The notes: generated by a model from the sequence alone, not told the origin. A stretch of 26,244 nucleotides of DNA from Alphaproteobacteria bacterium (GCA_965220745.1 CBDCQT010000008.1:1-26244), one strand, 5' to 3'; shown: positions 1 to 19,167, numbered from the stretch's first letter. A program made the numbers and translations.

Positions 1-651
1 TCGGTGTTCGCGTCCATCAGTAACCGGGGACCGGCGTGAAGGGACACGGAGGCTTCGTCGAAGGCGGAGCCGGAATGCTCCCGGCGCAGAATATTGGCAC
101 CCGAGCGCAGGCGGGTCCGGTCGTTCATCGGGTACTGGTATTCGGCACCGCCCCACAGCACGAGGCCGACGCCCGAAGTGGTGAGCTGAGCCGCGTCCCG
201 CGTGAAGGGCAGGCCGTAGATGGTGATGATCCGCTCGTCGGAGCCTGCGCCGATGTTGGTGTCGGGGGCAAGGGCGAAGCCGGCGTTGTAGCTCCCAGCG
301 CTTGCGGGCGCGGATATCCGAAAGGAACGCGTGAATGTTGGCGGCGACCTCCGGGGGCACCCCGCCGGCAAGGACCGCCTCGAAGTGCCGGCGGGCGAGG
401 GAGTCCTCCCCCTTGAGATAGAAGGAGCGGGCCAGCTCCAGGCGGACGCGAACGAGGCCGGGGTCGACCACCAGCATCCGGCGGAGGACGGCGATCGCCT
501 TGTCGAGCAGCTTGTCCCGCCGGTCGCCTTCGGCCGCCACGGCGGCCTCGATCGCCTGCATGCCATCGCGAAACATGCTGCTGAGATCCTGCGCTGCGGC
601 GGGGAGGGGAAGGCCGAACACCAAAACCACAGCGGCCAGGAAACTTCGTAT
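1..651 (-). pseudogene. Slam-family exporter 2, left copy: 5' part only, with a +1 frameshift (real or sequencing error)
   Basis: Mirror of 16469-17118. GCTCCCAGC at 291-299 has three C where the intact right copy implies GCTCCAGC. Truncated by the window edge. Confidence 0.8.
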
Positions 652-744
652 CGAAACTCCTCCTGATGCCCTCCCCTGAATGCCCCTGCCGCTTGCACGC
701 GCCGAGGTCGGCATGGTGCTCGTCGCCGGTGCGCGCTCAGTCAA

Positions 745-2364
745 TCACTGGGGGGTGGCGGCAAAGGCTCCGGCCAGCGAGGCACTCGTGCCCGTGGCAT
801 CGAACCAGCCAGCCACGCCCGCGAGGTCGACCACCGGGTACTGGTTCGCCGGGTATTTGGTGCGGTCACTGAGCACCGCGTTGTCGTGGCCGTAGAAGTT
901 GGCGCCCCACGAACCTGCCACCGGCAGGCCGCCGATGTTCGCCACGGTGATTCCGCTGGCATCATCGGCGTTATCGGCCAGAGTTATATCGACGGGCATA
1001 CCGACATTTGCAGGGCTTCCTCCCCCGCCCAACGTAACCCCCCAGCCTTCCAGGAGGCGGCCGTCTTCGTGGAACCCGGTGATGCTGCCACTAAGGGTGC
1101 CAGCGGCGTCAGCGGCACCAAAATCAACGTTCAAGGTGGCGGTCGCGGTGAAGTCGCCGATCTTGGCGTTCTGCCCGCCGACCTGCCCCTGCGTGACGTA
1201 TCTGCCGACCGCGCCGCCGCGAAACGTCGCTGAGCCGGTAAGTTGGTTGAAGTTGACCAAGTTGGTTGAACCCGATTCGGCTCCACCGCCTGCAACGTAC
1301 CTGAAGTTGTAAGTCGTCCCACTGATGTTGTCCGGGATGGAGGACCAGATGCCGAAGTAGAGGAATGCATCGTCCTGATCCAGCGGCACGCCGGAAGCAA
1401 TACTGCGAGGCTTGAAGGTCCAGTTGCTTGGCGTCGTAAAGGTTGGCTGCCCTTGGCTAAATGTGACATGAGTGGCGATGTGCGCGTTGATCTCGGCGCT
1501 GGTGGGGGCGTCGCCGCTACCAACGTCAGATGCAGCGCAGCCGGTGGCACAAGTGAACGAGCCACCCGCGCCGTCGAAGCTGCCGCTTACCGTAAGCTCC
1601 GTGACGTTGGTAGTGGTAGTACCCGCCGGAGTTTCGGTTGTGGCTTGTGCCGAGCGGCCCGTCGCAAGCGATGCGTGGTCGGATATTGTGGATATATCCG
1701 GAATTGACACACCATACCGCTTCCAGAACGCCCTGGTGCTGGGCGCCTGGATGTTGGTGTAGAGGTCGACGGTTTCGTCGGTGAGTGTGTCAGCCGTTCC
1801 GGTCTGGCCGGTGAACCTGGCGCTGCGCCAGCCGCCGGGAACGGGGGGTGCCGCAGAGCCAGAGGTCAGAGTCCCCGAAGGCCTGAATGTGAGGCTGCTT
1901 CCGTGCGGCCACGAGACGGTTACCGGCCCTTGCTCATCCGCACCACCTGTCCCCAGGTCCAGCACAGCGCCAAACGAGCTGGCGCGGGCCCTGAATTCCG
2001 CTTGTTCGGCCTCGGTCAGCTTCTGCTGCGCCTCGTCGCGATCCCCTATGGCCTCGTCGCGATCCTCTACGGCCTCGTCCCGGTCCTCTACGGCCTCGTC
2101 CCGGTCCTCTATGGCCTCGTCCCGGTCCTCTATGGCCTCGTCCCGGTCCTCTATGGCCTCGTCCCGGTCCTCTATGGCCTCGTCCCGGTCCTCTACGGCC
2201 TCGTCGCGCACCCGCTCGGCTTCTTCCAGCTGCTCTTGGAGAGCCTCCTCCTCGGCCTTGGTCAGGCCGTCACTGCCCGAGCAAGCCGAGAGGGCGAAAC
2301 CGGCCGCCGCAATAAGAGCGATTGCGCTTCCGCGGGTGAGCCATGCAGCTTTCGTGCGTTTCAT
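745..2364 (-). CDS. Surface lipoprotein B with heptad-repeat stalk and C-terminal TbpB-like beta-barrel (left copy)
   Basis: 539 aa. Signal II with lipobox LSAC (Cys28). RDEA(I/V)ED repeats. C-terminal motifs GSATFRGGAVGRY, ATLNVDFG, GSWGANFYG, SLAGAFAAT resemble TbpB/fHbp-type barrels. Identical to 14756-16375. Confidence 0.85.
   Translation of the reverse strand: MKRTKAAWLTRGSAIALIAAAGFALSACSGSDGLTKAEEEALQEQLEEAERVRDEAVEDRDEAIEDRDEAIEDRDEAIEDRDEAIEDRDEAVEDRDEAVEDRDEAIGDRDEAQQKLTEAEQAEFRARASSFGAVLDLGTGGADEQGPVTVSWPHGSSLTFRPSGTLTSGSAAPPVPGGWRSARFTGQTGTADTLTDETVDLYTNIQAPSTRAFWKRYGVSIPDISTISDHASLATGRSAQATTETPAGTTTTNVTELTVSGSFDGAGGSFTCATGCAASDVGSGDAPTSAEINAHIATHVTFSQGQPTFTTPSNWTFKPRSIASGVPLDQDDAFLYFGIWSSIPDNISGTTYNFRYVAGGGAESGSTNLVNFNQLTGSATFRGGAVGRYVTQGQVGGQNAKIGDFTATATLNVDFGAADAAGTLSGSITGFHEDGRLLEGWGVTLGGGGSPANVGMPVDITLADNADDASGITVANIGGLPVAGSWGANFYGHDNAVLSDRTKYPANQYPVVDLAGVAGWFDATGTSASLAGAFAATPQ
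2029..2208 (-). repeat. 21-bp coding tandem repeat, 8 full units plus a partial unit (left copy)
   Basis: Repeated GGCCTCGTCCCGGTCCTCTA(T/C) on the + strand; mirror of 14912-15091. Confidence 0.95.
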
Positions 2365-2650
2365 CGGTGTTCTCCTTCAGAATGCATGATCACGTCTGCG
2401 GCCGGCCAAGTGGGAGCACGGCAGGGTCAGGCCGCATCTTGAGGACCCCGCCGCGCGGAACCGCCCGAGAGCACAGCGGCCACGGTCTCGTCTGTTGCAC
2501 CGTCGAACCCGCCGACCCCCTTCAACCGCTCCCGATTGGTCCCACGGGTTCCGGGTTCCGGTCATCGCCCCTGCCTCCTCCGGATGGCGTCGCGCACGCC
2601 GTGCATATCCGTCCTCATCCCGTTGCGTCGCGGGCAGTTGCTGTGTTCTC

Positions 2651-4009
2651 CTAGAACGTCCGCACCACTCCGAGCTCCGCCACGCTGCGCTCGTACTCGT
2701 AGAGCCCGAGATTGCTGTCGCGCACCTCGTGCCTCACCGTGACCTCCGGCATGAAGCCGAACAGGTCGATATGGCGGTTCGACACCGTGATCCGTCCCGC
2801 AAGCGTCTCGTCCTGCCGCGCGTCCGGCCCGTAGATCGGAAGAGGCGCCCCGTATTCCCGCCAGCGAAAGCTCGGGCCCGCCGTCACGACGAACCCGCGG
2901 GGAAGCTCCCGCGCCACGGAAAGTCCGACGATGAACTCGCGCCACGAATAGGCGTCGCTGTCGAGCGCCTCCCGGCGCCAGCCCGCAATGCCCTGCAGCA
3001 GGGTCGTCTGGCCCAGGGCGTGGGACAGGCCAACCTGCGCCGTGTAGAGGACGCCCTCGCCCAGGAAGGTCTCGTACGAGTTCCACTCCGCTCCCGCCGA
3101 CCCGCTCAGACGCCATGTCGGCGCCATCAGCCAGTCGCCTGAAAGCTCCACTCCCCCGGCACGGCTGTAGGTCTCGTTCCCCAGCTGCCGGCCCCGCGCC
3201 ACAAGCTCGGGCCGCAGCTCGAAGCGCTCGAAGAGAAACCGCGGGCCGGCCCGCAGGCTCAGCGTCTGCTCGTTGAACGCGCTCTTGCCGCTGCCGTAGG
3301 TGCGCGTGTGCAAGTGAGCCGAGGTGCGCAGCCGCACGTCGGGCGAGAGCCGCGCCTCGTAGCCGCCGCCTACGCTCGCGCTCAGCCCCACGCCGCTGGT
3401 CTGTCGTGCGTCCTCCGACAGCGTCGCAGGAAGCCCGAACAGGTCGATCTCCCGCGCGCTGGTGGCGGCGTTGATATTGGTGTCGGGGGCAAGCGAGAGG
3501 GTGCCCGTGACCGACCAGGACTTGCGTCGCCGGATGCGGTCCAGGAAGGACAGCGCGTTCGCCCGCACGGTGGGGGGCAGGTCCTCGGCCGCAAGTGCCT
3601 GACGGAAGTGGTAGGCGGCGCTGCCGTCCTCGCCCGCCTGGAAGTAGGCCAGCGCAAGGTCGAGACGGACCCGCAGCAGGGACGGGTCTCTGGCGAGCAT
3701 GGCGCGGAAGCGCGCGATCGCCTCCTGCCACTCGCCGCGCATCATCGCGATCGTGCCCCAGAGGAAGTCGATGTCGTCGATGTTCCCCTGACCCAGCTTG
3801 ACGCCCTCCAGCAGCAGCGCGGCATTGTCCGGCTCGCCCGCCGCCAACGCAGCACGGGCAGCCTCGATCAGGGCCTCTGCGGAGAGCCCCGGCGTCGGCG
3901 GCTCCTGCGCGCGCGCGGGACCGGGCAACGCCAGTGCCACAAGGACCAGGACGAGCAGCAGTATCGGGACCGGGACGAACAGGACCGCGGGCCGAACCGT
4001 GAGAGCCAT
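2651..4009 (-). CDS. Slam-family surface lipoprotein assembly modulator 1 (TPR plus DUF560-type outer-membrane barrel), left copy
   Basis: 452 aa. Sec signal ending ARA-Q. TPR-like RVRLDLALAYFQAG. APDTNINAA motif at the barrel start, amphipathic strands, C-terminal Phe (VVRTF). Directly downstream of a TbpB-barrel lipoprotein. Confidence 0.88.
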   Translation of the reverse strand: MALTVRPAVLFVPVPILLLVLVLVALALPGPARAQEPPTPGLSAEALIEAARAALAAGEPDNAALLLEGVKLGQGNIDDIDFLWGTIAMMRGEWQEAIARFRAMLARDPSLLRVRLDLALAYFQAGEDGSAAYHFRQALAAEDLPPTVRANALSFLDRIRRRKSWSVTGTLSLAPDTNINAATSAREIDLFGLPATLSEDARQTSGVGLSASVGGGYEARLSPDVRLRTSAHLHTRTYGSGKSAFNEQTLSLRAGPRFLFERFELRPELVARGRQLGNETYSRAGGVELSGDWLMAPTWRLSGSAGAEWNSYETFLGEGVLYTAQVGLSHALGQTTLLQGIAGWRREALDSDAYSWREFIVGLSVARELPRGFVVTAGPSFRWREYGAPLPIYGPDARQDETLAGRITVSNRHIDLFGFMPEVTVRHEVRDSNLGLYEYERSVAELGVVRTF

Positions 4010-4048
4010 GGAGACCTTCAGGCCATCGCGCGAGTGGCATCGGGTGAG

Positions 4049-4084
4049 AAAAAGGCGCCCGGCCCGTACCCGGACCGGGCGCCT
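4049..4084 (-). terminator. Rho-independent terminator after lipoprotein A (left copy)
   Basis: Mirror of 13036-13071; GC-rich stem followed by a T-run on the minus strand. Confidence 0.8.
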
Positions 4085-4116
4085 GCACTGGTTGAACCGT
4101 CGAGCGAGCGGGGCCG

Positions 4117-5949
4117 TTAGTCGTCTGCCTCCTTGGCCCCGCCGAAGGCACCGACGAATGCGCCGCCCTCGTTGCCTTCAGAGGCGAAGTCGAAGATGCC
4201 GCCGGCCTCCGCATTCTTCGCGCCATAGAACCCGCCACTGAACGAGCCGGTGAAGGTGGCGTCGGAGTCCAATCCGTGCATGCCGTCAATGCCCGATGCG
4301 TCGTCGTCGCCAGAGAACGTGTTGCCCGATATATCGCCCTTCAGCGTGGCGAGGTTAGTCAGGGTTGCGGTGATCGTGGCCTTGTCGAAGTCCGCTATGA
4401 TAGCGGCATCGTCGTGCAGAAGCCTGATCGTGCCTTCCCCATCCGGGTGGGCTTCCTGCACGGCAGCGGCCCAGTTGCCGTTGTACGTGGCCGAGCCAGC
4501 GTTCTGCATGTCAGCCCCAGTCATCCCGTCGCCGATGCTCTGGACGAAGCCGATGCCGAGATCCACAACCTCTTGCGTGCCGTCCTTGGCGGCCTCACCC
4601 AGCCCAGCCCAGACGCCGAAGTGCACGTGGCTGTAGTCCTTGGCCGCTGGAAGGTCGGCGGTCACGAAGACGTTTTCGTCGCCTTCGGTCGTGTCGTTGG
4701 TTCCGAGCCCGTCTTGATTGACCGCAAAATGCACGTCGACGAGTACATACTCATACTCCGCGCTCGTCTCGCCATCGCCATCAGTCGTAGCGGTGGTTTC
4801 ATTCAGCACCACATAGACCGTTGGGCTACCCGTGGCCGCAGTGTTCACAAAGGAGTACACCTGCTTTGCCTTGGTGCCCGCCTCAACTATGTCTCCAGCC
4901 GGACTATCAGTAGACCCGTCGCCAGGGGTAAGTGTTCCCGCAGTGCCGCTATTCGTCGTTGTGTCAACCTCGAAGAACATACCCACAGGGCGCAACGTAA
5001 GCTCCACGTTGGTGTCTGTTGCGAGATCGGCTCCAGAGGTAATTCCAGTCCCTCCAGAGGCCACCTCAACTGTTCCTTCCTTTTCACCCATGTGCGCGGT
5101 AGCGGCACCAGCGGCATACACCTTGACAGACCGAGTGCTTGCATAGGCTGTGATGATCTGCAAGCGCGCCATGTCGTCAGCCGAATCCACCTTCTTGCCG
5201 ATTTTGAGGTCATCACGCATCTCTGCGTTCACCTTGGGCGACACATACTCAGTTTCGGTGATGAGAACAGCATCGATAGCCACACGGCCATACGTCGCAT
5301 CACCCGTCGTCATCGGCGTGCTGAGCAGCCCCGTGGTAACCACTTGCGCGTCATCGCCAGACCCGGAAGTCACCTCGATCTTCGGCGCTTCCGCATCGAT
5401 GGTCGTCTCGCCGACGCTCTTCATCGTGCCGTCGATCTTCAACTCCATATTGGCGCTCGCGATGGCCTTTTTGCTGTATTCGTCGGCCTTCATGGCCGCC
5501 GCTTCGGCATCCGCCTGGGCTGCCCTGGCCTTCGCCAACTCTTCGCCGGCAACGCTCGCGAGCGTTGCCGCCGCCGCCGCGTCGCTGGCCGCCTTGGCTG
5601 CCATGTACGCCGTCATGGCCGCGTCGGCTTGCATCTGAGCCTTATCGGCTTGAGACATTGCCATCGCGCCGGTCTGTGCGGTCGCGAGGTTCTCCGTCGC
5701 GTCCCCGGCGTCGCTGGCCGCCATCGCTGCATTGTCCGACGCCATCTTGGCGGCATCAGCCGCGTCTGCGGCCGCCGTCTGGGTCTCCTCAAGATCCGTC
5801 GGACCCGGATCCGGCGTGGGCGTCGGCGTCTCCTCTACGACCGGCTCCGGATCATCGCCGCCGTCGTGGACGCAGCCGTACATGACGGCGGTGAGGGCGA
5901 CGATCGAGCACGCCGCCAGCAAACTGCGAGTCAACTTCGTCTTCTTCAT
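4117..5949 (-). CDS. Surface lipoprotein A with Ala-rich stalk and C-terminal TbpB-like beta-barrel (left copy)
   Basis: 610 aa. Signal II ending MYGC (Cys26). Pro/Thr linker and Ala-rich helix. C-terminal GSATYNGNW, ADFDKATITA, GSFSGGFYGAKNAEAGGIF, GAFVGAFGG typical of TbpB C-terminal barrels. SD AGGAG upstream. Confidence 0.88.
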   Translation of the reverse strand: MKKTKLTRSLLAACSIVALTAVMYGCVHDGGDDPEPVVEETPTPTPDPGPTDLEETQTAAADAADAAKMASDNAAMAASDAGDATENLATAQTGAMAMSQADKAQMQADAAMTAYMAAKAASDAAAAATLASVAGEELAKARAAQADAEAAAMKADEYSKKAIASANMELKIDGTMKSVGETTIDAEAPKIEVTSGSGDDAQVVTTGLLSTPMTTGDATYGRVAIDAVLITETEYVSPKVNAEMRDDLKIGKKVDSADDMARLQIITAYASTRSVKVYAAGAATAHMGEKEGTVEVASGGTGITSGADLATDTNVELTLRPVGMFFEVDTTTNSGTAGTLTPGDGSTDSPAGDIVEAGTKAKQVYSFVNTAATGSPTVYVVLNETTATTDGDGETSAEYEYVLVDVHFAVNQDGLGTNDTTEGDENVFVTADLPAAKDYSHVHFGVWAGLGEAAKDGTQEVVDLGIGFVQSIGDGMTGADMQNAGSATYNGNWAAAVQEAHPDGEGTIRLLHDDAAIIADFDKATITATLTNLATLKGDISGNTFSGDDDASGIDGMHGLDSDATFTGSFSGGFYGAKNAEAGGIFDFASEGNEGGAFVGAFGGAKEADD

Positions 5950-5976
5950 GGCTTCGAGGCTCTCCTTTGCATCTAG

Positions 5977-5996
5977 GAGGCCTCGGCCGAGGCCTC
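5977..5996. promoter_or_regulatory. Perfect 20-bp palindrome in the leader of left lipoprotein A
   Basis: GAGGCCTCGGCCGAGGCCTC, 10 bp outside the inverted-repeat boundary. The palindrome is seen directly; its function is inferred. Confidence 0.5.
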
Positions 5997-6246
5997 GCTG
6001 GGTTCAACAAGTCGGCCGTCAACGTACCTGACGACTCGGCAACTGTCCATAGCCCGTGAACTTCACCATACCGGCGCCCGCTTGTCTACATCGGAAAAGC
6101 GGCCATGAGCCATGAAGCGATCCCAAACCGTCATGGGGACTCCGCCCCTCGTCGCTGCTGCCTCCCTGCACATCCGCAGGCCTCCTTCGTGCCGCGCGAT
6201 GTGCTGAGCCGAATTCTCGCCACAATTCCGCGCCCTTTGCAAGCCC

Positions 6247-6264
6247 GAAATTCGACCGAATTTC
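6247..6264. promoter_or_regulatory. 8-2-8 palindrome, candidate protein-binding site
   Basis: GAAATTCG-AC-CGAATTTC. A near copy, CGAAATCGACCGAATTT, lies at 10951-10967 at the other end of the core. Confidence 0.5.
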
Positions 6265-6925
6265 AACTTGCCGAACAAAGCCTTACAGCCATGCCCCTCC
6301 GCACCTCGCCGCTCCCGGCCCCTCGCAGGAACGCGGCCTGCAGCAACCGACCGGGCCGGCCCTCGCACGGAACGCGAGGCTTCCGGTCGAACTGCCGACG
6401 CCAGACGCCGTATCGGAGCCGTCGGCACAGCGGCATCGGCATCCTCGGCGGGGTCGCGACGGTGCGCGTGGTGGAGCCAGCGACAGTGGTCACGCCAGGT
6501 TCCCGCAGCCCGCGATGTGAACGTCGACACTCAGTTAAACATGGAACAGGAGCGGGAGGTTCGCGAGCTGCCCGACCGGGGGGAATTCGGCGGTTTGAGG
6601 GGCTTTTTCGGCCTCCGGCGGACTCCTTGATGACGGTGGATTCCGGTGATTCCAGGGCCGCTACGGTGAGGGTCGCCATCAGCGCGCGCCACGAAGCGGA
6701 ACGGATTCTGGCTCGGACGCCTCCAAGTGTGATCCGCAGATGGCCTTGCCGGTTGCACCAGACGCGGCAATGAATCGGAATCGGTACGGGCCGCACCGTG
6801 TGTCCCCGCCCGTCGCCGTGAGGCAGCGCGCCGCCGTGCGCTCGTGGCATCCCGCCAGGCCCTCCGCTACTATCCTGGCCGACGGTTGCAGCATGAGCAC
6901 GCGGCTGCCCGAAGAGGATGCGGCC

Positions 6926-7957
6926 ATGCGGCACGACGAAGCCTTCAAAGCCATTTTCTCCCACAAGATTTCGGTCGAGCATCTGCTCCGCTTTCTCGCC
7001 GGCACGATCGACGACGGCCCGGACTGGATCGCAGCCTTCGACCCCGAGACCCTGGAGCCGGTGCCCACCGAGCGCATCGACGAGACCCTGCACCGCCACC
7101 TCAGCGATCTGGTCTGGCGCATGCGCCGGCGTGACGGCGGCGAAGAGGACTGGGCCTACCTCTTCGTGCTGATCGAGCTTCAGTCGTCGGTGGATCATCT
7201 GATGGCGTTCAGGGTTCGCACCTACGTGGACCTGCTCTATCGCGGGCTCCTGGCGGGTCGCCGCTTCGGCGCCTCGGACCGCCTGCCGCCGGTGCTCCCC
7301 GTGGTGCTCTACAACGGGAAATCTCCATGGACGGCGGCGACGAGCGTGGAGGAGCTGGTTGCGCCGGCGGTCCGCCCCTCCGGCGACTTGGTCCCCGTGC
7401 CCTTCTACGCCGGCGCGTCTTACGTGACGCTTGACGTCGGTCGGGTCGGGGGCGGAGACTCCCCATCGGACGATGTGCTCTCTCTCGTGATCGGCATCGA
7501 GCGGATGTCATCTTATAGTGAGGGACACGCGACGCTGCGTGAGGCGTTCTCCGTCCTTCGCGGTCCCGAGCACCGGCAGTTGCGCCGGACGTTTTATGAC
7601 TGGTTCACGATGCTCGCCGGGCAGGGCGCCGAAGGCACTTTGATCGAGGAGTTCGAGGAGATGGAACGGATTCCTGCAGAAGGAGAGATGCGGACGCCGG
7701 TGCAGGATCGCGTGCGCGCGTGGCGAGAGGCGGACCGTGAGCAGGGCCGCGCGGAGGGCTTCGAGAAGGGTATCGCGCAAGAACGCGCCTTGCTGCGACG
7801 CCTCATCGAACGCAAGTTCGGTGCGGACACCGCCGGGCGTGCTGCCTCCCTGCTGGCCGGGATCGGGGAGCCGGAGCGGCTAGCCGACGTCGGCGACTGG
7901 ATCATCGACTGCGCCTCGGGCGACGAGCTGATCGCGCGGCTGGAGCGCGCAAACTAA
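6926..7957 (+). CDS. Rpn/YhgA-like recombination-promoting nuclease (Transposase_31, PD-(D/E)XK)
   Basis: Motifs HDEAFKAIFS, SDLVWR, VLIELQSSVDHLMAFRV, LPPVLPVVLYNG..PW and C-terminal EQGRAEGFEKG..LLRRLIERKFG. Start moved from 6740 to ATG 6926, which follows GAAGAGGA and begins the family-like N-terminus. Confidence 0.88.
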   Translation: MRHDEAFKAIFSHKISVEHLLRFLAGTIDDGPDWIAAFDPETLEPVPTERIDETLHRHLSDLVWRMRRRDGGEEDWAYLFVLIELQSSVDHLMAFRVRTYVDLLYRGLLAGRRFGASDRLPPVLPVVLYNGKSPWTAATSVEELVAPAVRPSGDLVPVPFYAGASYVTLDVGRVGGGDSPSDDVLSLVIGIERMSSYSEGHATLREAFSVLRGPEHRQLRRTFYDWFTMLAGQGAEGTLIEEFEEMERIPAEGEMRTPVQDRVRAWREADREQGRAEGFEKGIAQERALLRRLIERKFGADTAGRAASLLAGIGEPERLADVGDWIIDCASGDELIARLERAN

Positions 7958-8185
7958 AGAGTGCTTCCGCCCCCTCGCGCGAAGTCGAGAGGGGGCGATA
8001 CCGCCTCGCGCTGCCCGAAGCCACGCCTGCTCGTCTTCCCATTCCGGCCATTTGCGTGTGCTCTCGCCGGTCCCCCGGCAGAAGTGGCACGTCTCCGTTC
8101 GGTAGCTGGCGCGCACGCGCAAGTCAGCCATCATGCCGGCGAGCAGGACGAGCCGGCCGGTGCCGGCGCAGAGGCGGCACCGCAT
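7880..8185 (-). CDS. Small hypothetical protein with two CxxCxGxG (DnaJ-type zinc-finger) motifs; 3' end uncertain
   Basis: CRLCAGTG and CHFCRGTG. The ORF runs through the 7968-7997 hairpin and overlaps the rpn 3' end. Confidence 0.45.
   Translation of the reverse strand: MRCRLCAGTGRLVLLAGMMADLRVRASYRTETCHFCRGTGESTRKWPEWEDEQAWLRAARGGIAPSRLRARGRKHSLVCALQPRDQLVARGAVDDPVADVG
7968..7997. terminator. Hairpin just after the rpn stop (putative terminator)
   Basis: CGCCCCCTC/GAGGGGGCG 9-bp stem 10 nt after TAA; no clear U-tract. Confidence 0.5.
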
Positions 8186-8316: not shown

Positions 8317-8336
8317 TCCGGGCGCGCTCCCCGGCA

Positions 8337-9533: not shown

Positions 9534-9551
9534 GTTCCTGTCCTCCGTCCC

Positions 9552-10772
9552 TTACGCCGCCTCCGCCGACGGCATGCCGTCGGCGGAGGCCTGGGTGGCA
9601 CCCTCCGTGCGCAGGATGTCGTCCTCGATGCTGCCGCCCACGCGGGCAACGGCAACCTTCTCCGCCTCCTGCGACAGGTGCGCATACCGCGCCGTGCTGC
9701 TCACGTCCGTGTGGCCGAGAAGGCGGCCGATCATCGGAAGCTGAAGACCGAGGGCCAGGGCGCGCGAGGCGAACGAATGACGCAGGTCATGAATGCGCAC
9801 GTCCTCGACCTCTGCCTTCTCGCGCACTCGGTGCCAGTGGCTGGTCAGCGTCGCCAGATGGCGGTTGGGCTTGCCCCCCGTGATCACCCAGGGGCTGCGC
9901 CTCACCCGCTTGATCCCCGCCAGCACCTCCAGCACGGCGGGCGTCAGCGGCACCATCCGCGCACCGGTCTTCGCGTCGCGCAGGCGAATCTCCCCTGCCT
10001 TGCGGTCGATGTCGCTCCACCTGAGCGTCTGTATCTCCCCGAGCCGGCACCCCGTCAGCATCAGCAGGCGCAGCGCCGCCGCAGCCCGCGCCGACACCGG
10101 GCCCTCGGCCTCAAGCTCGCACAGCGCCTCGCCCACCCTGCGGTACTCATCCTCCGTGAGGAAGCGCTCGCGGCGGCCCTCCTTGTAGCGCAGAACGAAC
10201 CGGCACGGGTTGCCGCCGGGGGACGCAATACCCCACGCCTCGGCCAACGAGAACATCTTTGACAGCACCATCAGCGCCCGGTTCGCAGCGCGCGGCGTCT
10301 CCCGCAGGCCATAGTGCAGGGCTTCGACCTCGGCACGCCCCACCTTGTCCAGGGACATCGCGCCCAGCGCCGGCAGGATGTGGTTCCTGAGCGAGCCCTT
10401 GTAGATGCCCTGCGTGTGGGCGTTGCAGTGCACCGCGACATGGGCCTCGAGGTAGCGCTCGGCCAGTTGGGCGACGGTGAGCACAGGCTCGGACTCCGCC
10501 TTCGCCGGGTCCTCGCCCTTCTTGATGCGGGCGATGGCCGCAGCAGCCTTCTTGCGCGCCTGATCGGGGGTAAGATCGCCGTGGCGTCCGAGCGAGACGC
10601 GCCTGATGCCCACCGGCCCCCGGCACTGCGCGACATAGATCTTGGCGCCTGAGGGGTAGACCCTGACGCCGAAGCCGGGCAGCTCCTTGTCCCAGAAGGT
10701 GGCGTCCTTCTTCTCGACGGCGAGCGCGTCGACGGTGCGCTTCGAGATCGAGAGCTCACTTCGTTTAGGCAT
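9552..10772 (-). CDS. Tyrosine recombinase/integrase 1 with N-terminal arm-DNA-binding domain (P4-like)
   Basis: WDKELPGFGVRVYPSG, TGCR, DAKTG, HDLRH, LLGH, TARY. ATG 10772 preferred over TTG 10778 because GGAG lies at 10783-10780. Confidence 0.93.
   Translation of the reverse strand: MPKRSELSISKRTVDALAVEKKDATFWDKELPGFGVRVYPSGAKIYVAQCRGPVGIRRVSLGRHGDLTPDQARKKAAAAIARIKKGEDPAKAESEPVLTVAQLAERYLEAHVAVHCNAHTQGIYKGSLRNHILPALGAMSLDKVGRAEVEALHYGLRETPRAANRALMVLSKMFSLAEAWGIASPGGNPCRFVLRYKEGRRERFLTEDEYRRVGEALCELEAEGPVSARAAAALRLLMLTGCRLGEIQTLRWSDIDRKAGEIRLRDAKTGARMVPLTPAVLEVLAGIKRVRRSPWVITGGKPNRHLATLTSHWHRVREKAEVEDVRIHDLRHSFASRALALGLQLPMIGRLLGHTDVSSTARYAHLSQEAEKVAVARVGGSIEDDILRTEGATQASADGMPSAEAA
9559..9590. 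repeat. Perfect 32-bp palindrome in the last codons of recombinase 1
   Basis: GCCTCCGCCGACGGCA|TGCCGTCGGCGGAGGC. Confidence 0.9.
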
Positions 10773-11030
10773 CGTCAAGCTCCGCGTTCATCATACCTTC
10801 GTTCACCGGTTGGCGCAGTCACCGGGGGCCTGAGCAACGCCGTGCGGCGCCTCGTCATGAACGGCCCGTCCAGGTCCTGTCCTCACGGCCATCACCCCTT
10901 CCGTCACCCGAGGACCGAATCCCGGCCTCCGGCGGGAAATTCGGGGTGGGCGAAATCGACCGAATTTACCGTCATCACTTCGGTAATCTCCGACATCAAA
11001 CTCCAGCGTATTGGATCGTACATCTGACGT

Positions 11031-11059
11031 ATCGTAGAGGCATGTGGGCGAATAGTCAA
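11031..11059 (-). promoter_or_regulatory. Putative sigma70 promoter for the recombinase pair
   Basis: Minus strand TTGACT (11059-11054), 17-nt spacer, TACGAT (11036-11031), in an AT-rich intergenic region. Confidence 0.6.
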
Positions 11060-11088
11060 CCCACTGTATAAACACTAAATATCGTACT

Positions 11089-11108
11089 CCTACGTAGCTC
11101 TACGTAGG
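11089..11108. promoter_or_regulatory. 9-2-9 palindrome upstream of right lipoprotein A
   Basis: CCTACGTAG-CT-CTACGTAGG; two self-complementary CTACGTAG units with a 10-bp period. Confidence 0.5.
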
Positions 11109-11170
11109 TCTGACGGCAAAAGTGGGGAAAACGCTACACCCTACTTTTACAAGAGGAGAGCCTCGAAGCC

Positions 11171-13003
11171 ATGAAGAAGACGAAGTTGACTCGCAGTTTG
11201 CTGGCGGCGTGCTCGATCGTCGCCCTCACCGCCGTCATGTACGGCTGCGTCCACGACGGCGGCGATGATCCGGAGCCGGTCGTAGAGGAGACGCCGACGC
11301 CCACGCCGGATCCGGGTCCGACGGATCTTGAGGAGACCCAGACGGCGGCCGCAGACGCGGCTGATGCCGCCAAGATGGCGTCGGACAATGCAGCGATGGC
11401 GGCCAGCGACGCCGGGGACGCGACGGAGAACCTCGCGACCGCACAGACCGGCGCGATGGCAATGTCTCAAGCCGATAAGGCTCAGATGCAAGCCGACGCG
11501 GCCATGACGGCGTACATGGCAGCCAAGGCGGCCAGCGACGCGGCGGCGGCGGCAACGCTCGCGAGCGTTGCCGGCGAAGAGTTGGCGAAGGCCAGGGCAG
11601 CCCAGGCGGATGCCGAAGCGGCGGCCATGAAGGCCGACGAATACAGCAAAAAGGCCATCGCGAGCGCCAATATGGAGTTGAAGATCGACGGCACGATGAA
11701 GAGCGTCGGCGAGACGACCATCGATGCGGAAGCGCCGAAGATCGAGGTGACTTCCGGGTCTGGCGATGACGCGCAAGTGGTTACCACGGGGCTGCTCAGC
11801 ACGCCGATGACGACGGGTGATGCGACGTATGGCCGTGTGGCTATCGATGCTGTTCTCATCACCGAAACTGAGTATGTGTCGCCCAAGGTGAACGCAGAGA
11901 TGCGTGATGACCTCAAAATCGGCAAGAAGGTGGATTCGGCTGACGACATGGCGCGCTTGCAGATCATCACAGCCTATGCAAGCACTCGGTCTGTCAAGGT
12001 GTATGCCGCTGGTGCCGCTACCGCGCACATGGGTGAAAAGGAAGGAACAGTTGAGGTGGCCTCTGGAGGGACTGGAATTACCTCTGGAGCCGATCTCGCA
12101 ACAGACACCAACGTGGAGCTTACGTTGCGCCCTGTGGGTATGTTCTTCGAGGTTGACACAACGACGAATAGCGGCACTGCGGGAACACTTACCCCTGGCG
12201 ACGGGTCTACTGATAGTCCGGCTGGAGACATAGTTGAGGCGGGCACCAAGGCAAAGCAGGTGTACTCCTTTGTGAACACTGCGGCCACGGGTAGCCCAAC
12301 GGTCTATGTGGTGCTGAATGAAACCACCGCTACGACTGATGGCGATGGCGAGACGAGCGCGGAGTATGAGTATGTACTCGTCGACGTGCATTTTGCGGTC
12401 AATCAAGACGGGCTCGGAACCAACGACACGACCGAAGGCGACGAAAACGTCTTCGTGACCGCCGACCTTCCAGCGGCCAAGGACTACAGCCACGTGCACT
12501 TCGGCGTCTGGGCTGGGCTGGGTGAGGCCGCCAAGGACGGCACGCAAGAGGTTGTGGATCTCGGCATCGGCTTCGTCCAGAGCATCGGCGACGGGATGAC
12601 TGGGGCTGACATGCAGAACGCTGGCTCGGCCACGTACAACGGCAACTGGGCCGCTGCCGTGCAGGAAGCCCACCCGGATGGGGAAGGCACGATCAGGCTT
12701 CTGCACGACGATGCCGCTATCATAGCGGACTTCGACAAGGCCACGATCACCGCAACCCTGACTAACCTCGCCACGCTGAAGGGCGATATATCGGGCAACA
12801 CGTTCTCTGGCGACGACGACGCATCGGGCATTGACGGCATGCACGGATTGGACTCCGACGCCACCTTCACCGGCTCGTTCAGTGGCGGGTTCTATGGCGC
12901 GAAGAATGCGGAGGCCGGCGGCATCTTCGACTTCGCCTCTGAAGGCAACGAGGGCGGCGCATTCGTCGGTGCCTTCGGCGGGGCCAAGGAGGCAGACGAC
13001 TAA
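11171..13003 (+). CDS. Surface lipoprotein A with C-terminal TbpB-like barrel (right copy)
   Basis: Same protein as 4117-5949; lipobox Cys26; SD AGGAG at 11154-11158. Confidence 0.88.
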   Translation: MKKTKLTRSLLAACSIVALTAVMYGCVHDGGDDPEPVVEETPTPTPDPGPTDLEETQTAAADAADAAKMASDNAAMAASDAGDATENLATAQTGAMAMSQADKAQMQADAAMTAYMAAKAASDAAAAATLASVAGEELAKARAAQADAEAAAMKADEYSKKAIASANMELKIDGTMKSVGETTIDAEAPKIEVTSGSGDDAQVVTTGLLSTPMTTGDATYGRVAIDAVLITETEYVSPKVNAEMRDDLKIGKKVDSADDMARLQIITAYASTRSVKVYAAGAATAHMGEKEGTVEVASGGTGITSGADLATDTNVELTLRPVGMFFEVDTTTNSGTAGTLTPGDGSTDSPAGDIVEAGTKAKQVYSFVNTAATGSPTVYVVLNETTATTDGDGETSAEYEYVLVDVHFAVNQDGLGTNDTTEGDENVFVTADLPAAKDYSHVHFGVWAGLGEAAKDGTQEVVDLGIGFVQSIGDGMTGADMQNAGSATYNGNWAAAVQEAHPDGEGTIRLLHDDAAIIADFDKATITATLTNLATLKGDISGNTFSGDDDASGIDGMHGLDSDATFTGSFSGGFYGAKNAEAGGIFDFASEGNEGGAFVGAFGGAKEADD

Positions 13004-13035
13004 CGGCCCCGCTCGCTCGACGGTTCAACCAGTGC

Positions 13036-13071
13036 AGGCGCCCGGTCCGGGTACGGGCCGGGCGCCTTTTT
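13036..13071 (+). terminator. Rho-independent terminator between lipoprotein A and Slam 1
   Basis: AGGCGCCCGGTCCG-GGTA-CGGGCCGGGCGCCT followed by TTTT. Confidence 0.82.
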
Positions 13072-13110
13072 CTCACCCGATGCCACTCGCGCGATGGCCT
13101 GAAGGTCTCC

Positions 13111-14469
13111 ATGGCTCTCACGGTTCGGCCCGCGGTCCTGTTCGTCCCGGTCCCGATACTGCTGCTCGTCCTGGTCCTTGTGGCACTGGCGTTGCCCGGT
13201 CCCGCGCGCGCGCAGGAGCCGCCGACGCCGGGGCTCTCCGCAGAGGCCCTGATCGAGGCTGCCCGTGCTGCGTTGGCGGCGGGCGAGCCGGACAATGCCG
13301 CGCTGCTGCTGGAGGGCGTCAAGCTGGGTCAGGGGAACATCGACGACATCGACTTCCTCTGGGGCACGATCGCGATGATGCGCGGCGAGTGGCAGGAGGC
13401 GATCGCGCGCTTCCGCGCCATGCTCGCCAGAGACCCGTCCCTGCTGCGGGTCCGTCTCGACCTTGCGCTGGCCTACTTCCAGGCGGGCGAGGACGGCAGC
13501 GCCGCCTACCACTTCCGTCAGGCACTTGCGGCCGAGGACCTGCCCCCCACCGTGCGGGCGAACGCGCTGTCCTTCCTGGACCGCATCCGGCGACGCAAGT
13601 CCTGGTCGGTCACGGGCACCCTCTCGCTTGCCCCCGACACCAATATCAACGCCGCCACCAGCGCGCGGGAGATCGACCTGTTCGGGCTTCCTGCGACGCT
13701 GTCGGAGGACGCACGACAGACCAGCGGCGTGGGGCTGAGCGCGAGCGTAGGCGGCGGCTACGAGGCGCGGCTCTCGCCCGACGTGCGGCTGCGCACCTCG
13801 GCTCACTTGCACACGCGCACCTACGGCAGCGGCAAGAGCGCGTTCAACGAGCAGACGCTGAGCCTGCGGGCCGGCCCGCGGTTTCTCTTCGAGCGCTTCG
13901 AGCTGCGGCCCGAGCTTGTGGCGCGGGGCCGGCAGCTGGGGAACGAGACCTACAGCCGTGCCGGGGGAGTGGAGCTTTCAGGCGACTGGCTGATGGCGCC
14001 GACATGGCGTCTGAGCGGGTCGGCGGGAGCGGAGTGGAACTCGTACGAGACCTTCCTGGGCGAGGGCGTCCTCTACACGGCGCAGGTTGGCCTGTCCCAC
14101 GCCCTGGGCCAGACGACCCTGCTGCAGGGCATTGCGGGCTGGCGCCGGGAGGCGCTCGACAGCGACGCCTATTCGTGGCGCGAGTTCATCGTCGGACTTT
14201 CCGTGGCGCGGGAGCTTCCCCGCGGGTTCGTCGTGACGGCGGGCCCGAGCTTTCGCTGGCGGGAATACGGGGCGCCTCTTCCGATCTACGGGCCGGACGC
14301 GCGGCAGGACGAGACGCTTGCGGGACGGATCACGGTGTCGAACCGCCATATCGACCTGTTCGGCTTCATGCCGGAGGTCACGGTGAGGCACGAGGTGCGC
14401 GACAGCAATCTCGGGCTCTACGAGTACGAGCGCAGCGTGGCGGAGCTCGGAGTGGTGCGGACGTTCTAG
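13111..14469 (+). CDS. Slam-family exporter 1 (right copy)
   Basis: Same protein as 2651-4009: signal peptide, TPR, barrel, terminal Phe. Confidence 0.88.
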   Translation: MALTVRPAVLFVPVPILLLVLVLVALALPGPARAQEPPTPGLSAEALIEAARAALAAGEPDNAALLLEGVKLGQGNIDDIDFLWGTIAMMRGEWQEAIARFRAMLARDPSLLRVRLDLALAYFQAGEDGSAAYHFRQALAAEDLPPTVRANALSFLDRIRRRKSWSVTGTLSLAPDTNINAATSAREIDLFGLPATLSEDARQTSGVGLSASVGGGYEARLSPDVRLRTSAHLHTRTYGSGKSAFNEQTLSLRAGPRFLFERFELRPELVARGRQLGNETYSRAGGVELSGDWLMAPTWRLSGSAGAEWNSYETFLGEGVLYTAQVGLSHALGQTTLLQGIAGWRREALDSDAYSWREFIVGLSVARELPRGFVVTAGPSFRWREYGAPLPIYGPDARQDETLAGRITVSNRHIDLFGFMPEVTVRHEVRDSNLGLYEYERSVAELGVVRTF

Positions 14470-14755
14470 GAGAACACAGCAACTGCCCGCGACGCAACGG
14501 GATGAGGACGGATATGCACGGCGTGCGCGACGCCATCCGGAGGAGGCAGGGGCGATGACCGGAACCCGGAACCCGTGGGACCAATCGGGAGCGGTTGAAG
14601 GGGGTCGGCGGGTTCGACGGTGCAACAGACGAGACCGTGGCCGCTGTGCTCTCGGGCGGTTCCGCGCGGCGGGGTCCTCAAGATGCGGCCTGACCCTGCC
14701 GTGCTCCCACTTGGCCGGCCGCAGACGTGATCATGCATTCTGAAGGAGAACACCG

Positions 14756-16375
14756 ATGAAACGCACGAAAGCTGCATGGCTCACCCGCGGAAGCGCAATC
14801 GCTCTTATTGCGGCGGCCGGTTTCGCCCTCTCGGCTTGCTCGGGCAGTGACGGCCTGACCAAGGCCGAGGAGGAGGCTCTCCAAGAGCAGCTGGAAGAAG
14901 CCGAGCGGGTGCGCGACGAGGCCGTAGAGGACCGGGACGAGGCCATAGAGGACCGGGACGAGGCCATAGAGGACCGGGACGAGGCCATAGAGGACCGGGA
15001 CGAGGCCATAGAGGACCGGGACGAGGCCGTAGAGGACCGGGACGAGGCCGTAGAGGATCGCGACGAGGCCATAGGGGATCGCGACGAGGCGCAGCAGAAG
15101 CTGACCGAGGCCGAACAAGCGGAATTCAGGGCCCGCGCCAGCTCGTTTGGCGCTGTGCTGGACCTGGGGACAGGTGGTGCGGATGAGCAAGGGCCGGTAA
15201 CCGTCTCGTGGCCGCACGGAAGCAGCCTCACATTCAGGCCTTCGGGGACTCTGACCTCTGGCTCTGCGGCACCCCCCGTTCCCGGCGGCTGGCGCAGCGC
15301 CAGGTTCACCGGCCAGACCGGAACGGCTGACACACTCACCGACGAAACCGTCGACCTCTACACCAACATCCAGGCGCCCAGCACCAGGGCGTTCTGGAAG
15401 CGGTATGGTGTGTCAATTCCGGATATATCCACAATATCCGACCACGCATCGCTTGCGACGGGCCGCTCGGCACAAGCCACAACCGAAACTCCGGCGGGTA
15501 CTACCACTACCAACGTCACGGAGCTTACGGTAAGCGGCAGCTTCGACGGCGCGGGTGGCTCGTTCACTTGTGCCACCGGCTGCGCTGCATCTGACGTTGG
15601 TAGCGGCGACGCCCCCACCAGCGCCGAGATCAACGCGCACATCGCCACTCATGTCACATTTAGCCAAGGGCAGCCAACCTTTACGACGCCAAGCAACTGG
15701 ACCTTCAAGCCTCGCAGTATTGCTTCCGGCGTGCCGCTGGATCAGGACGATGCATTCCTCTACTTCGGCATCTGGTCCTCCATCCCGGACAACATCAGTG
15801 GGACGACTTACAACTTCAGGTACGTTGCAGGCGGTGGAGCCGAATCGGGTTCAACCAACTTGGTCAACTTCAACCAACTTACCGGCTCAGCGACGTTTCG
15901 CGGCGGCGCGGTCGGCAGATACGTCACGCAGGGGCAGGTCGGCGGGCAGAACGCCAAGATCGGCGACTTCACCGCGACCGCCACCTTGAACGTTGATTTT
16001 GGTGCCGCTGACGCCGCTGGCACCCTTAGTGGCAGCATCACCGGGTTCCACGAAGACGGCCGCCTCCTGGAAGGCTGGGGGGTTACGTTGGGCGGGGGAG
16101 GAAGCCCTGCAAATGTCGGTATGCCCGTCGATATAACTCTGGCCGATAACGCCGATGATGCCAGCGGAATCACCGTGGCGAACATCGGCGGCCTGCCGGT
16201 GGCAGGTTCGTGGGGCGCCAACTTCTACGGCCACGACAACGCGGTGCTCAGTGACCGCACCAAATACCCGGCGAACCAGTACCCGGTGGTCGACCTCGCG
16301 GGCGTGGCTGGCTGGTTCGATGCCACGGGCACGAGTGCCTCGCTGGCCGGAGCCTTTGCCGCCACCCCCCAGTGA
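14756..16375 (+). CDS. Surface lipoprotein B with heptad stalk and TbpB-like barrel (right copy)
   Basis: Same protein as 745-2364; SD GAAGGAG at 14742-14748; lipobox LSAC. Confidence 0.85.
   Translation: MKRTKAAWLTRGSAIALIAAAGFALSACSGSDGLTKAEEEALQEQLEEAERVRDEAVEDRDEAIEDRDEAIEDRDEAIEDRDEAIEDRDEAVEDRDEAVEDRDEAIGDRDEAQQKLTEAEQAEFRARASSFGAVLDLGTGGADEQGPVTVSWPHGSSLTFRPSGTLTSGSAAPPVPGGWRSARFTGQTGTADTLTDETVDLYTNIQAPSTRAFWKRYGVSIPDISTISDHASLATGRSAQATTETPAGTTTTNVTELTVSGSFDGAGGSFTCATGCAASDVGSGDAPTSAEINAHIATHVTFSQGQPTFTTPSNWTFKPRSIASGVPLDQDDAFLYFGIWSSIPDNISGTTYNFRYVAGGGAESGSTNLVNFNQLTGSATFRGGAVGRYVTQGQVGGQNAKIGDFTATATLNVDFGAADAAGTLSGSITGFHEDGRLLEGWGVTLGGGGSPANVGMPVDITLADNADDASGITVANIGGLPVAGSWGANFYGHDNAVLSDRTKYPANQYPVVDLAGVAGWFDATGTSASLAGAFAATPQ
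14912..15091 (+). repeat. 21-bp coding tandem repeat (RDEA[IV]ED x8 plus RDEA)
   Basis: CGGGACGAGGCC(A/G)TAGAGGAC units read directly; the last full unit encodes RDEAIGD. Confidence 0.95.
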
Positions 16376-16468
16376 TTGACTGAGCGCGCACCGGCGACGA
16401 GCACCATGCCGACCTCGGCGCGTGCAAGCGGCAGGGGCATTCAGGGGAGGGCATCAGGAGGAGTTTCG

Positions 16469-17695
16469 ATACGAAGTTTCCTGGCCGCTGTGGTTTTGGT
16501 GTTCGGCCTTCCCCTCCCCGCCGCAGCGCAGGATCTCAGCAGCATGTTTCGCGATGGCATGCAGGCGATCGAGGCCGCCGTGGCGGCCGAAGGCGACCGG
16601 CGGGACAAGCTGCTCGACAAGGCGATCGCCGTCCTCCGCCGGATGCTGGTGGTCGACCCCGGCCTCGTTCGCGTCCGCCTGGAGCTGGCCCGCTCCTTCT
16701 ATCTCAAGGGGGAGGACTCCCTCGCCCGCCGGCACTTCGAGGCGGTCCTTGCCGGCGGGGTGCCCCCGGAGGTCGCCGCCAACATTCACGCGTTCCTTTC
16801 GGATATCCGCGCCCGCAAGCGCTGGAGCTACAACGCCGGCTTCGCCCTTGCCCCCGACACCAACATCGGCGCAGGCTCCGACGAGCGGATCATCACCATC
16901 TACGGCCTGCCCTTCACGCGGGACGCGGCTCAGCTCACCACTTCGGGCGTCGGCCTCGTGCTGTGGGGCGGTGCCGAATACCAGTACCCGATGAACGACC
17001 GGACCCGCCTGCGCTCGGGTGCCAATATTCTGCGCCGGGAGCATTCCGGCTCCGCCTTCGACGAAGCCTCCGTGTCCCTTCACGCCGGTCCCCGGTTACT
17101 GATGGACGCGAACACCGAGGCCAGCGTGCTGTCCACCGCGAGGCAGCACTGGATCGGCACCGAGAAGGACCACCACGCCTTGGGCGGGCGCATCGAGGTC
17201 GGCCACCGCCTCACCCGGCGTGCCACCATATTCGGCCGTGTGTCCCTCGAGGATCGGCATTACCGGACCCGCACGAGCCTCGATGGCACGGCTCTAGATG
17301 TCTCCCTCATCGGCGCCTACGTGATCACCCCCACCGTTCGCGCAGATGTCTCCGCCGGTTACGGGCAGGAACGCCCCGACCGGATGCGCGAGCGGAACGA
17401 GCGGTATCGCGTGGGCGCCAACGTTTCCGTCATCCTTCCCGCCGGCTTCACCGTGAGCGGCGGTGGCGACTATCGCTGGACCAATTACGAGGCCGGCTGG
17501 TTCCCCCATGTCCTTGATAACGGCGCGCGCAAGGACAAGACCTGGAGCGCCCGCGCCTCCGTCTACAACCGCGGCTTCACGCTCATGGGCTTCAGCCCCG
17601 AGCTTGGCGTTGTGCACGAGGTTCGGAACACCAACGCGCAGCTCTACGACTACGAGCGCACATCCGGCGAGCTGCGCTTCGTGCGCCAGTTCTGA
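16469..17695 (+). CDS. Slam-family exporter 2 (intact right copy); probable start at an ATA codon
   Basis: RVRLELARSFYLKG TPR, APDTNIGAG motif, C-terminal LRFVRQF. AGGAGGAG at 16456-16463 precedes the in-frame ATA 16469, which opens a signal peptide (RSFLAAVVLVFGLPLPAAA-Q). Alternative starts: TTG 16376, ATG 16406. Confidence 0.85.
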   Translation: MRSFLAAVVLVFGLPLPAAAQDLSSMFRDGMQAIEAAVAAEGDRRDKLLDKAIAVLRRMLVVDPGLVRVRLELARSFYLKGEDSLARRHFEAVLAGGVPPEVAANIHAFLSDIRARKRWSYNAGFALAPDTNIGAGSDERIITIYGLPFTRDAAQLTTSGVGLVLWGGAEYQYPMNDRTRLRSGANILRREHSGSAFDEASVSLHAGPRLLMDANTEASVLSTARQHWIGTEKDHHALGGRIEVGHRLTRRATIFGRVSLEDRHYRTRTSLDGTALDVSLIGAYVITPTVRADVSAGYGQERPDRMRERNERYRVGANVSVILPAGFTVSGGGDYRWTNYEAGWFPHVLDNGARKDKTWSARASVYNRGFTLMGFSPELGVVHEVRNTNAQLYDYERTSGELRFVRQF

Positions 17696-19161: not shown

Positions 19162-19167
19162 GCGCGC

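Follow-up and report, generated by a model that had tools for sequence, protein, structure and literature searches.

Our analysis of a 26,244-bp contig from an alphaproteobacterial genome (GCA_965220745.1, CBDCQT010000008.1:1-26244; contig C8, the whole of which is the window discussed here) suggests that its central 5187-bp core, which encodes two tyrosine recombinases, is probably the integrase end of a mobile island. The island would target the translation starts of lipoprotein genes and carry a lipoprotein-Slam cluster of its own, and the mirror symmetry of the window would reflect recombination between the island and its own copy of the target site. The contig is one of 13 in an assembly of 4.82 Mb with 67% GC. 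An earlier note on this DNA had described two lipoprotein-Slam-lipoprotein-Slam clusters lying head to head around the core with its two intact recombinases, and had noticed that each core end supplies a different upstream region to the same gene. Alignment and domain searches bear out both observations, the identity upstream of lipoprotein A breaking 17 nt before its ATG on both sides.

The two arms (1-5966 and 11154-17118) are mutually reverse-complementary in two stretches, I1 of 5672 nt and I2 of 295 nt, each 100% identical, and in a global alignment their sole difference is CCC (near 294-296) against CC (near 16824), the extra C of the left arm frameshifting the left copy of the second Slam gene. 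The left arm terminates exactly at contig base 1, within that gene, and the mirror identity stops at 17118, inside the right-arm Slam 2. The core itself (5967-11153) has no second copy within the contig; a diverged paralogue on contig C9 matches it at 78-87% nucleotide identity across three stretches. The right contig end also repeats internal sequence (18352-20599 equals 23980-26228, with C6 against C7 as the only difference), and the homopolymer-length-only differences at both terminal repeats look like consensus noise rather than divergence.

A shared core sequence and four kinds of flank

At both joints the mirror identity is bounded by a 10-nt core, O (AGGAGAGCCT), which is the Shine-Dalgarno (SD)-like motif of lipoprotein A and the first half of a 20-mer that the earlier note had picked out for a genome search. 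That search returns four occurrences at no more than one mismatch, all of them at the integrase-lipoprotein loci of contigs C8, C9 and C10. O joins four kinds of half-site in varying combinations. P lies on the int2 side; its CGTA(G/C) repeats come in clusters with a spacing of about 10 nt, and GCTACACCC stands just ahead of O. Since these repeat clusters are shared with islands on contigs C3 and C13, which are without the leader, P is best understood as an arm of the element. P' is a second arm with three CGTAG repeats. B consists of a GAGGCCTC motif pair and a spacer, and its paired form occurs three times in the genome, always at the far end of an integrase module. B' is the leader, nearly invariant at the nucleotide level in all leader sites.

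Our comparison covers 21 genomes of the genus, and 51 sites from 12 genomes and two further contigs could be classified: 21 are B-O-B', 18 P-O-B', 11 B-O-P', one B-O-? and none P-O-P', with tandem integrases adjoining O in all 18 P-O-B' sites. The 10-mer alone is unspecific (a backwards-read control gave 2-13 matches per strand per genome), and five of 19 later-added sites, which carry it by chance (L126, L134, L135, L136, L141), were left out of the tally. That O combines the four flanks differently across the 51 sites upholds the earlier proposal of a recombination site at the lipoprotein SD, and the earlier note's choice of enzymes holds as well. On the orf222 side of the core, five aligned loci agree in sequence up to GAGAGCCT and then split: the leader follows in C8 and in locus L035 of genome G037 (also in L031 and L057), P' follows in C9, in L087 of G025 and in L036 of G037, and each core type is found with either continuation. 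Together, repeat-bearing arms and hybrid attachment (att) sites point to lambda-like integration, as far as sequence comparison can speak to it.

In the scheme that we propose, strand exchange would occur in or beside O, the SD-like motif of Slam-dependent lipoprotein genes. In a native gene, O would be flanked by the GAGGCCTC hairpin (B) and, opposite it, by the leader with ATG and signal peptide (B'). Every element would bring along a lipoprotein-Slam cluster of its own, placed behind an internal B-O-B' that is directed away from the integrases. After integration the order would then be B-O-P' / cargo / Slam..lipoprotein <- B'-O-B / orf222, yhgA, int1, int2 / P-O-B' -> resident cluster. With this order, which comparison with relatives bears out, a cluster-core-mirror cluster layout would be the normal integrated form, the left cluster being cargo and the right one the resident target, and the left lipoprotein A copy of C8 would be the element's cargo gene. 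Integration or inversion would swap the hairpin side of the lipoprotein 5' region for the int2-side arm, and such a swap may change lipoprotein expression.

This genome has three places, in C8, in C9 and at the C10 end, where a tandem integrase pair and a lipoprotein gene stand head to head, and the three lipoprotein A paralogues are near-identical by letter through the SD-like motif and signal peptide and diverge completely thereafter. A 28-nt leader pattern is found in 12 of the 20 other genomes of the genus and in none of 23 genomes from nine other genera of the family, and at the loci examined an int2-int1 pair nearly always faces the leader head to head. On large contigs of other species, cores with two leaders are again found. 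From ATG to lipobox, some 95 nt are almost invariant across paralogues and species, while the mature proteins are less than 40% identical. Orthologues of the body of lipoprotein A gave matches in two of the 20 other genus genomes, the best at 52% identity, and these are too diverged to tell whether one body sits at either end of the core.

Two other kinds of target or element were considered and rejected. The window, C9 and the C10 end hold no tRNA gene that could serve as target, and if the core is read as a transposon with 10-nt inverted ends, its joined flanks yield no plausible empty site.

The integrase pair and the nested elements of relatives

Both recombinases exceed the Phage_integrase cut-off of 27.1 bits (int1 86.4, int2 92.8) and the Arm-DNA-bind_3 cut-off of 27 bits (37.4 and 52.8 for the two). 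Residues R244, K269, H329-x-x-R332, H355 and Y364 (Int1 numbering) are present in both and invariant in six of six paralogues, and an alignment with XerD matches the R, HxxR, H and Y positions. Judged by these residues both enzymes are catalytically intact, strand exchange at the proposed site being suggested by comparison, and by their domain set they are arm-binding, P4-type island integrases. Across loci int1 and int2 fall into separate orthologous groups, and the int2-int1 tandem pair probably acts as a heteromer.

The pair is by no means confined to Slam loci. This genome has 27 near-full-length integrase paralogues and at least 10 adjacent pairs, and only three of the pairs adjoin the leader and O. 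Metagenome-assembled genomes (MAGs) of several phyla keep the pair as a unit at 50-62% identity, and 22 such other-lineage loci, 13 of them with 10 kb on both sides, are without a lipoprotein or Slam match. The closer ones among the loci, which are L057, L083, L099 (a Defluviicoccus MAG) and L086 (a gammaproteobacterial MAG), retain the link to lipoprotein and Slam genes. The association of tandem integrases with such genes, which the earlier note had suggested looking for, is conserved in the genus, by way of the leader, and is seen again in the latter two MAGs; the integrase family itself is found at 55-62% identity in MAGs of several phyla with no Slam gene nearby. A metagenome scan with int2 returned 25 loci, L057 alone being informative. 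We also observed that one other-lineage MAG, OZ244653.1, has at least nine int2-like copies, including several int2-int1 pairs and some truncated copies (L088-L090, L101, L104, L105, L107, L110, L114), which points to a burst of the element family there.

Similarity of the core is incongruent with that of RpoB. G035 has an RpoB 100% identical in amino acids and a best core match of at most 82% in nucleotides, while G037 and G025, with RpoB at 95% and 97%, match the integrase half of the core at 95% and 97% nucleotide identity respectively, and the module therefore moves between lineages. It should be added that G035, despite its identical RpoB protein, is classed as another species; its assembly measures 7.9 Mb, is 9% contaminated and may represent either a mixed bin or a genome very closely related to this one.

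The large contigs of relatives display what an integrated element would look like. Hybrid sites there pair in direct orientation and nest up to three deep, with six pairs in G043, G035 and G037. In the single-contig genome G043 (contig C1), the outer pair consists of B-O-P' at 1532213+ and P-O-B' at 1639759+; inside it lies a middle pair, P-O-B' at 1559824- with B-O-P' at 1617310-, and then an inner pair, B-O-P' at 1567793+ with P-O-B' at 1596779+, with an intact B-O-B' at 1584371- innermost. Contig C2 of G035 has a pair 439700-/534156- that encloses 448065+/478960+, with an internal site at 469889-, and contig C7 of G037 has a pair 17623-/57365- with an internal site at 26585+. The orientation alternates by nesting level, as would be expected if each newcomer entered the previous element at its inverted internal site. 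In the innermost G043 element, lipoA-Slam1-lipoprotein-Slam2 reads away from B-O-B' and is followed by int1, int2 and then P-O-B' with lipoA-Slam1; this is the C8 layout with diverged arms. An unoccupied site is represented by G024 (L037), where hairpin, O, leader and lipoprotein..Slam follow one another with no integrase match in the 20-kb locus. Contig C8 itself has only P-O-B' and the internal-type B-O-B'.

Contig C9 is a 30.5-kb circle, or a tandem unit: an end-open reading frame runs in frame into the contig start, and its 465-aa product matches a C7 homologue in one high-scoring segment pair (aa 29-465) across the join. It encodes int1-int2, a leader-bearing lipoprotein, an HExxH lipoprotein and Slam, along with island-type cargo that comprises a Toprim primase, helicases (SNF2 and others) and IS66. 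Around its one core, P-O-B' and B-O-P' hybrid sites are inverted to each other, which is the arrangement that attP acting on the internal attB in cis would give.

Origin of the mirror arms

Because the two clusters of C8 are identical over at least 5966 nt, we infer that recombination took place between attP and a copy of the internal B-O-B' belonging to the element itself. This could have happened in cis, by inversion of the integrase segment, with canonical and flipped isomers coexisting and merged by the assembler; cluster A would then be single-copy, the population would have it with both B-O-B'(A) and P-O-B'(A), and the assembler could join the two as arm, core and mirror arm. We regard this as a serious but still tentative possibility, and we extend similar, equally guarded credence to recombination in trans, which would leave a self-nested or dimeric element with two real copies. 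The earlier suggestion that the mirror is the footprint of coexisting orientations thus survives as one of two live explanations, the case for active inversion being a comparative one.

Read data bear on this question in part. Four runs were mapped as Logan contigs, which are mostly shorter than 1.7 kb and so cannot link both joints, and whose depth gives no copy number. Three runs of one sample contain the arm with no difference, and two contigs (X15 record 23 and X14 record 15) cross 17118/17119 without difference or branch, so that in these runs no repeat boundary coincides with the arm's outer end. In X16, one contig connects a C8-type left core end, at 5957, with 20 letters that match the P' arm of G037 exactly, which is the partner joint (B-O-P') predicted by both the cis and the trans variant. 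Cover of core positions 6069-6470 is almost absent in X15 and X16, and a variant of them appears only in X14, from which we draw no conclusion. In X1, an independent metagenome, contigs of about 95-96% identity extend from the left and right core ends 28 and 30 nt into the leader, under our 31-nt bridging rule. Parts of the window occur in 17 runs from six studies, one of which may be the source; the others, labelled sponge, marine or coral metagenome, have shares of 0.11-0.30, X1 being the run of these that was mapped.

Several observations weigh against an integrated island that recombined with its own target copy. Its outer B-O-P' end is absent from contig C8, membership in an element rests on homology with relatives, and the X16 junction sequence is absent from all 13 assembly contigs and may derive from a co-resident relative or from a missing piece of the element. 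An intact attP (P-O-P') occurs neither in the 21 genomes and their 51 sites nor in viral_contigs, and no excised circle with a reconstituted attP was found in the 21 genomes. (In viral_contigs the O-P' pattern had 11 chance matches with no adjacent hairpin or arm, L158 having a distant integrase match of about 27%, and the leader pattern had none.) Moreover, conservation of the leader for some 95 nt beyond O is far stronger than a 10-nt core would call for or could account for. Integrase pairs of the C10 type (C10:806298-809400, locus L003) have hairpin-type sequence on both sides, and their far end reads GAGGCCTCTTCA with unrelated sequence thereafter, which suggests a crossover point about 12 nt upstream of that of the C8/C9 type. 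Finally, on contig C89 of G025 the two 218-nt arms differ by two single-nucleotide changes, which counts against a pure flip-state version of the scheme and favours two physical copies there.

How else could the mirror arise? It could be a pure assembly artefact, the genome having one arm and one core, with the left arm produced by a wrong path or a chimeric read. Such an origin would fit the left arm's stop at base 1, its single differing homopolymer base, the similar terminal repeat at the right contig end and the lack of a branch at 17118 in the read contigs. It seems quite improbable to us since the left joint sits at the very 10-nt core used by 51 other sites, since four other loci (L031, L035, L057 and G034:1721932) show the same contact between left core end and leader, and since a fold-back read would have doubled the core too; the X1 contigs running into the leader from both core ends argue in the same direction, though at 28 and 30 nt they are only suggestive. 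An inverted duplication without site-specific recombination, in which break-induced replication or RecA exchange in the leaders copied cluster A over the resident, is in our view very improbable. A conversion tract ending at 17118 would branch, while the read contigs cross that position unbranched, and the inner limit of identity falls at O and not at the end of the leader homology. This holds even though near-identical inverted leaders of about 110 nt do flank the cores of relatives with differing arms, the arm ends within a Slam gene whose paralogues are 60-77% identical, where a tract could resolve, and the core encodes a YhgA/Rpn-type nuclease.

A dedicated phase-variation switch, in which the integrase segment flips reversibly between inverted sites at the lipoprotein SD and thereby regulates expression of the cluster, deserves a closer look, although we think it unlikely. 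Integration, with its directly oriented pairs, accounts for every locus on a large contig, none of the 51 sites has the P-O-P' joint required by the reverse flip, and the integrases are of an arm-binding island type that is widespread without Slam genes. The earlier note had inferred that inversion or exchange of the core changes the pairing of promoters with lipoprotein clusters. C8 holds one cluster sequence rather than two alleles, ordinary integration accounts for the comparative pattern, and this assembly has no other lipoprotein allele with this leader at a contig end. Nor does either core end have an outward promoter-like site: a consensus scan found no sigma-70-like site in 5900-6200 and one in 10700-11200 that faces int2. 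A terminator scan gave nothing usable. In favour of a switch, inverted O cores stand at both core ends with the recombinase genes between them (Table 1), C9 resembles a flipped isomer, and C8 joins the same gene to both core ends.

Translation could also differ between such states. The motif AGGAG lies 12 nt 5' of the ATG, a long spacing for an SD. With B in place, the SD-like motif is paired to the proximal GAGGCCUC (minimum free energy -28.7 kcal/mol, z -2.3, six of 200 shuffles as good), and in the P context it is nearly free, touched by a 4-bp stem only; against this, the folding signal is weak overall, the empty site L037 giving a z of -0.96. One could combine the two ideas, with the integrase pair reversibly inverting between attP and the cargo attB, so that the island doubles as a phase switch while serial integration builds lipoprotein arrays. 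One state would have the native hairpin pairing with the SD-like motif, and the other would place the gene behind the integrase arm with the motif free. We find this combined version rather doubtful.

Encoded features, related systems and significance

The encoded proteins are collected with their coordinates in Table 1. Lipoprotein A has a lipobox (MYGC) and scores 48.9 bits with TbpB_B_D (cut-off 26), and Slam 1 and Slam 2 score 78.6 and 78.2 bits with SlipAM (cut-off 22). A Slam above its gathering score stands beside a lipoprotein that has both a lipobox and a C-terminal TbpB-like barrel; the NCBIfam slam_lipo model reached 47.6 bits, under its cut-off of 80. Lipoprotein B has a lipobox, but family searches gave no match for it. 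It holds a tandem array of about 13 units of 21 nt (seven residues, acidic) at 14863-15135, and such arrays can change length. For orf222, Pfam, NCBIfam and PHROG all returned no family, and its best atlas score of 0.81 is under the useful range. The true start of the YhgA-like open reading frame is probably near residue 55-63.

Table 1. Coordinates of the features of the window
Feature	Position	Strand	Remarks
Second Slam, left copy	1..744	-	truncated by contig end; frameshifted near 294
Lipoprotein B, left copy	745..2364	-	539 aa; lipobox; 21-nt acidic tandem array 1987-2259
Slam 1, left copy	2651..4009	-	SlipAM and TPR_Slam
Lipoprotein A, left copy	4117..5949	-	610 aa; signal peptide MKKTKLTRSLLAACSIVALTAVMYGC; C-terminal TbpB_B_D barrel
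Core O, left joint	5957..5966	-	AGGAGAGCCT on - strand; SD-like motif of left lipoprotein A; inner limit of left arm
Half-site B	5967..6104	-	spacer CTAGATGCAAAG and paired GAGGCCTC hairpin (5977-5996), then conserved sequence until orf222
orf222	6105..6773	+	without family; N-terminal part conserved beside B in related cores
YhgA-like / Rpn-family PD-(D/E)XK nuclease	6740..7957	+	Transposase_31 66.1 bits (cut-off 21)
int1 tyrosine recombinase	8337..9533	-	arm-DNA-binding, SAM-like and catalytic domains
int2 tyrosine recombinase	9552..10778	-	paralogous to int1, 52% identity
Half-site P	10779..11153	+	CGTA(G/C) repeats at 11017, 11033, 11083, 11093, 11103; GCTACACCC 14 nt ahead of O
Core O, right joint (P-O-B')	11154..11163	+	AGGAGAGCCT
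Half-site B'	11164..11265	+	leader remainder: CGAAGCC, ATG, signal peptide, lipobox
Right-arm cluster	11171..17695	+	lipoprotein A 11171-13003, Slam 1 13111-14469, lipoprotein B 14756-16375, Slam 2 16376-17695 (intact)

Beyond the mirror, the window holds an IS91-family element (Xer-like recombinase 18283-19161 and Y2 transposase 19168-20421) twice in direct orientation, at 18352-20599 and 23980-26228, 5628 nt apart, with an IS21 (istA 21426-22931, istB 22928-23719) between the copies. The first copy is adjoined by a perfect tandem duplication of 301 nt (17750-18050 / 18052-18352), and the contig ends 16 nt past the second. Elsewhere in the assembly, the start of contig C6 is a series of units of about 6.3 kb, 83-91% alike, and a 1087-nt insertion sequence has at least 15 near-identical copies, one of them at a contig end (region of the C6 and C5 starts).

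Several known systems resemble parts of this arrangement. P4-type integrase islands usually target tRNA genes or gene ends such as dusA. The present element shares with them the Arm-DNA-bind_3/SAM-like/catalytic architecture, the placement of int beside an att arm with repeated arm-type motifs, and the accumulation of islands at one kind of site; it differs in its tandem diverged paralogues, in having no nearby tRNA and in the position of attB within a 5' untranslated region. FimB/FimE, the Rci shufflon of R64 and Mycoplasma vsa/vsp are dedicated tyrosine-recombinase inversion switches with short symmetric sites. As in those systems, inverted sites flank a segment here, a recombinase is encoded nearby and surface structures are affected, and attP-like and attB-like sites are inverted within one molecule in C9 and perhaps in C8. 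In contrast to them, the sites here are of att type with long arms, and inversion would be a side reaction of a mobile element.

Other elements with adjacent recombinase genes also offer partial parallels. According to PMC5385486, GInts consist of three contiguous integrases and ginD and are site-specific islands that form circles and have short imperfect direct repeats as attL and attR; some insert at their target gene's 5' end, and in one an outward promoter maintains expression of the neighbouring gene. GInts and our core have in common that several tyrosine recombinase genes lie next to one another where a site-specific island ends. Here, however, there are two integrases with an arm-DNA-binding domain, followed by the yhgA-like gene and orf222 on the opposite strand. 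The target is a lipoprotein family's SD-like motif, and a homologue of the target gene, with an internal copy of the site, comes with the island. Elements of the Tn554 type likewise have two adjacent recombinase genes, both of which are required for Tn554 movement (PMC3414803, PMC5385486). The likeness noted is one of gene arrangement; no tnpC-like third gene was recognised in our core, which has repeat-bearing arms and hybrid att sites instead. BIM elements, with one recombinase and an unrelated protein, are unlike the tandem pair.

A further comparison is with the Slam/surface lipoprotein pairs of type XI secretion, where, as here, a Slam gene adjoins a lipoprotein with a C-terminal TbpB-like barrel; the difference is that mobile elements would carry the clusters of our contig and also target them. 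Most of what is known of Slam-dependent surface lipoproteins comes from pathogens, where variation comes about through mutation and allelic exchange. A search of the literature available to us, judged in part by title and the start of the abstract, found no publication tying Slam loci to integrases and, among the matches listed, nothing relevant on integrases of sponge symbionts. For genome curation, our results imply that the mirror arm should not count as a second chromosomal copy without long-read proof.

Whole lipoprotein-Slam clusters appear to travel on integrative elements aimed at resident translation starts of the same family, each newcomer bringing a fresh copy of the target. If this is true, it accounts for the nucleotide conservation of the leader with its sharp 5' edge, for the head-to-head layout, for the nested arrays of variants and for the assembly breaks at these loci. 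The element would be a natural island with a built-in copy of its own attB, from which inversion and self-nesting are predicted. Were the less likely phase-switch reading to hold, it would amount to surface variation driven by a mobile element in a host-associated alphaproteobacterium, while the island reading, if correct, would describe a new route to the diversification of the cell surface in host-associated bacteria.

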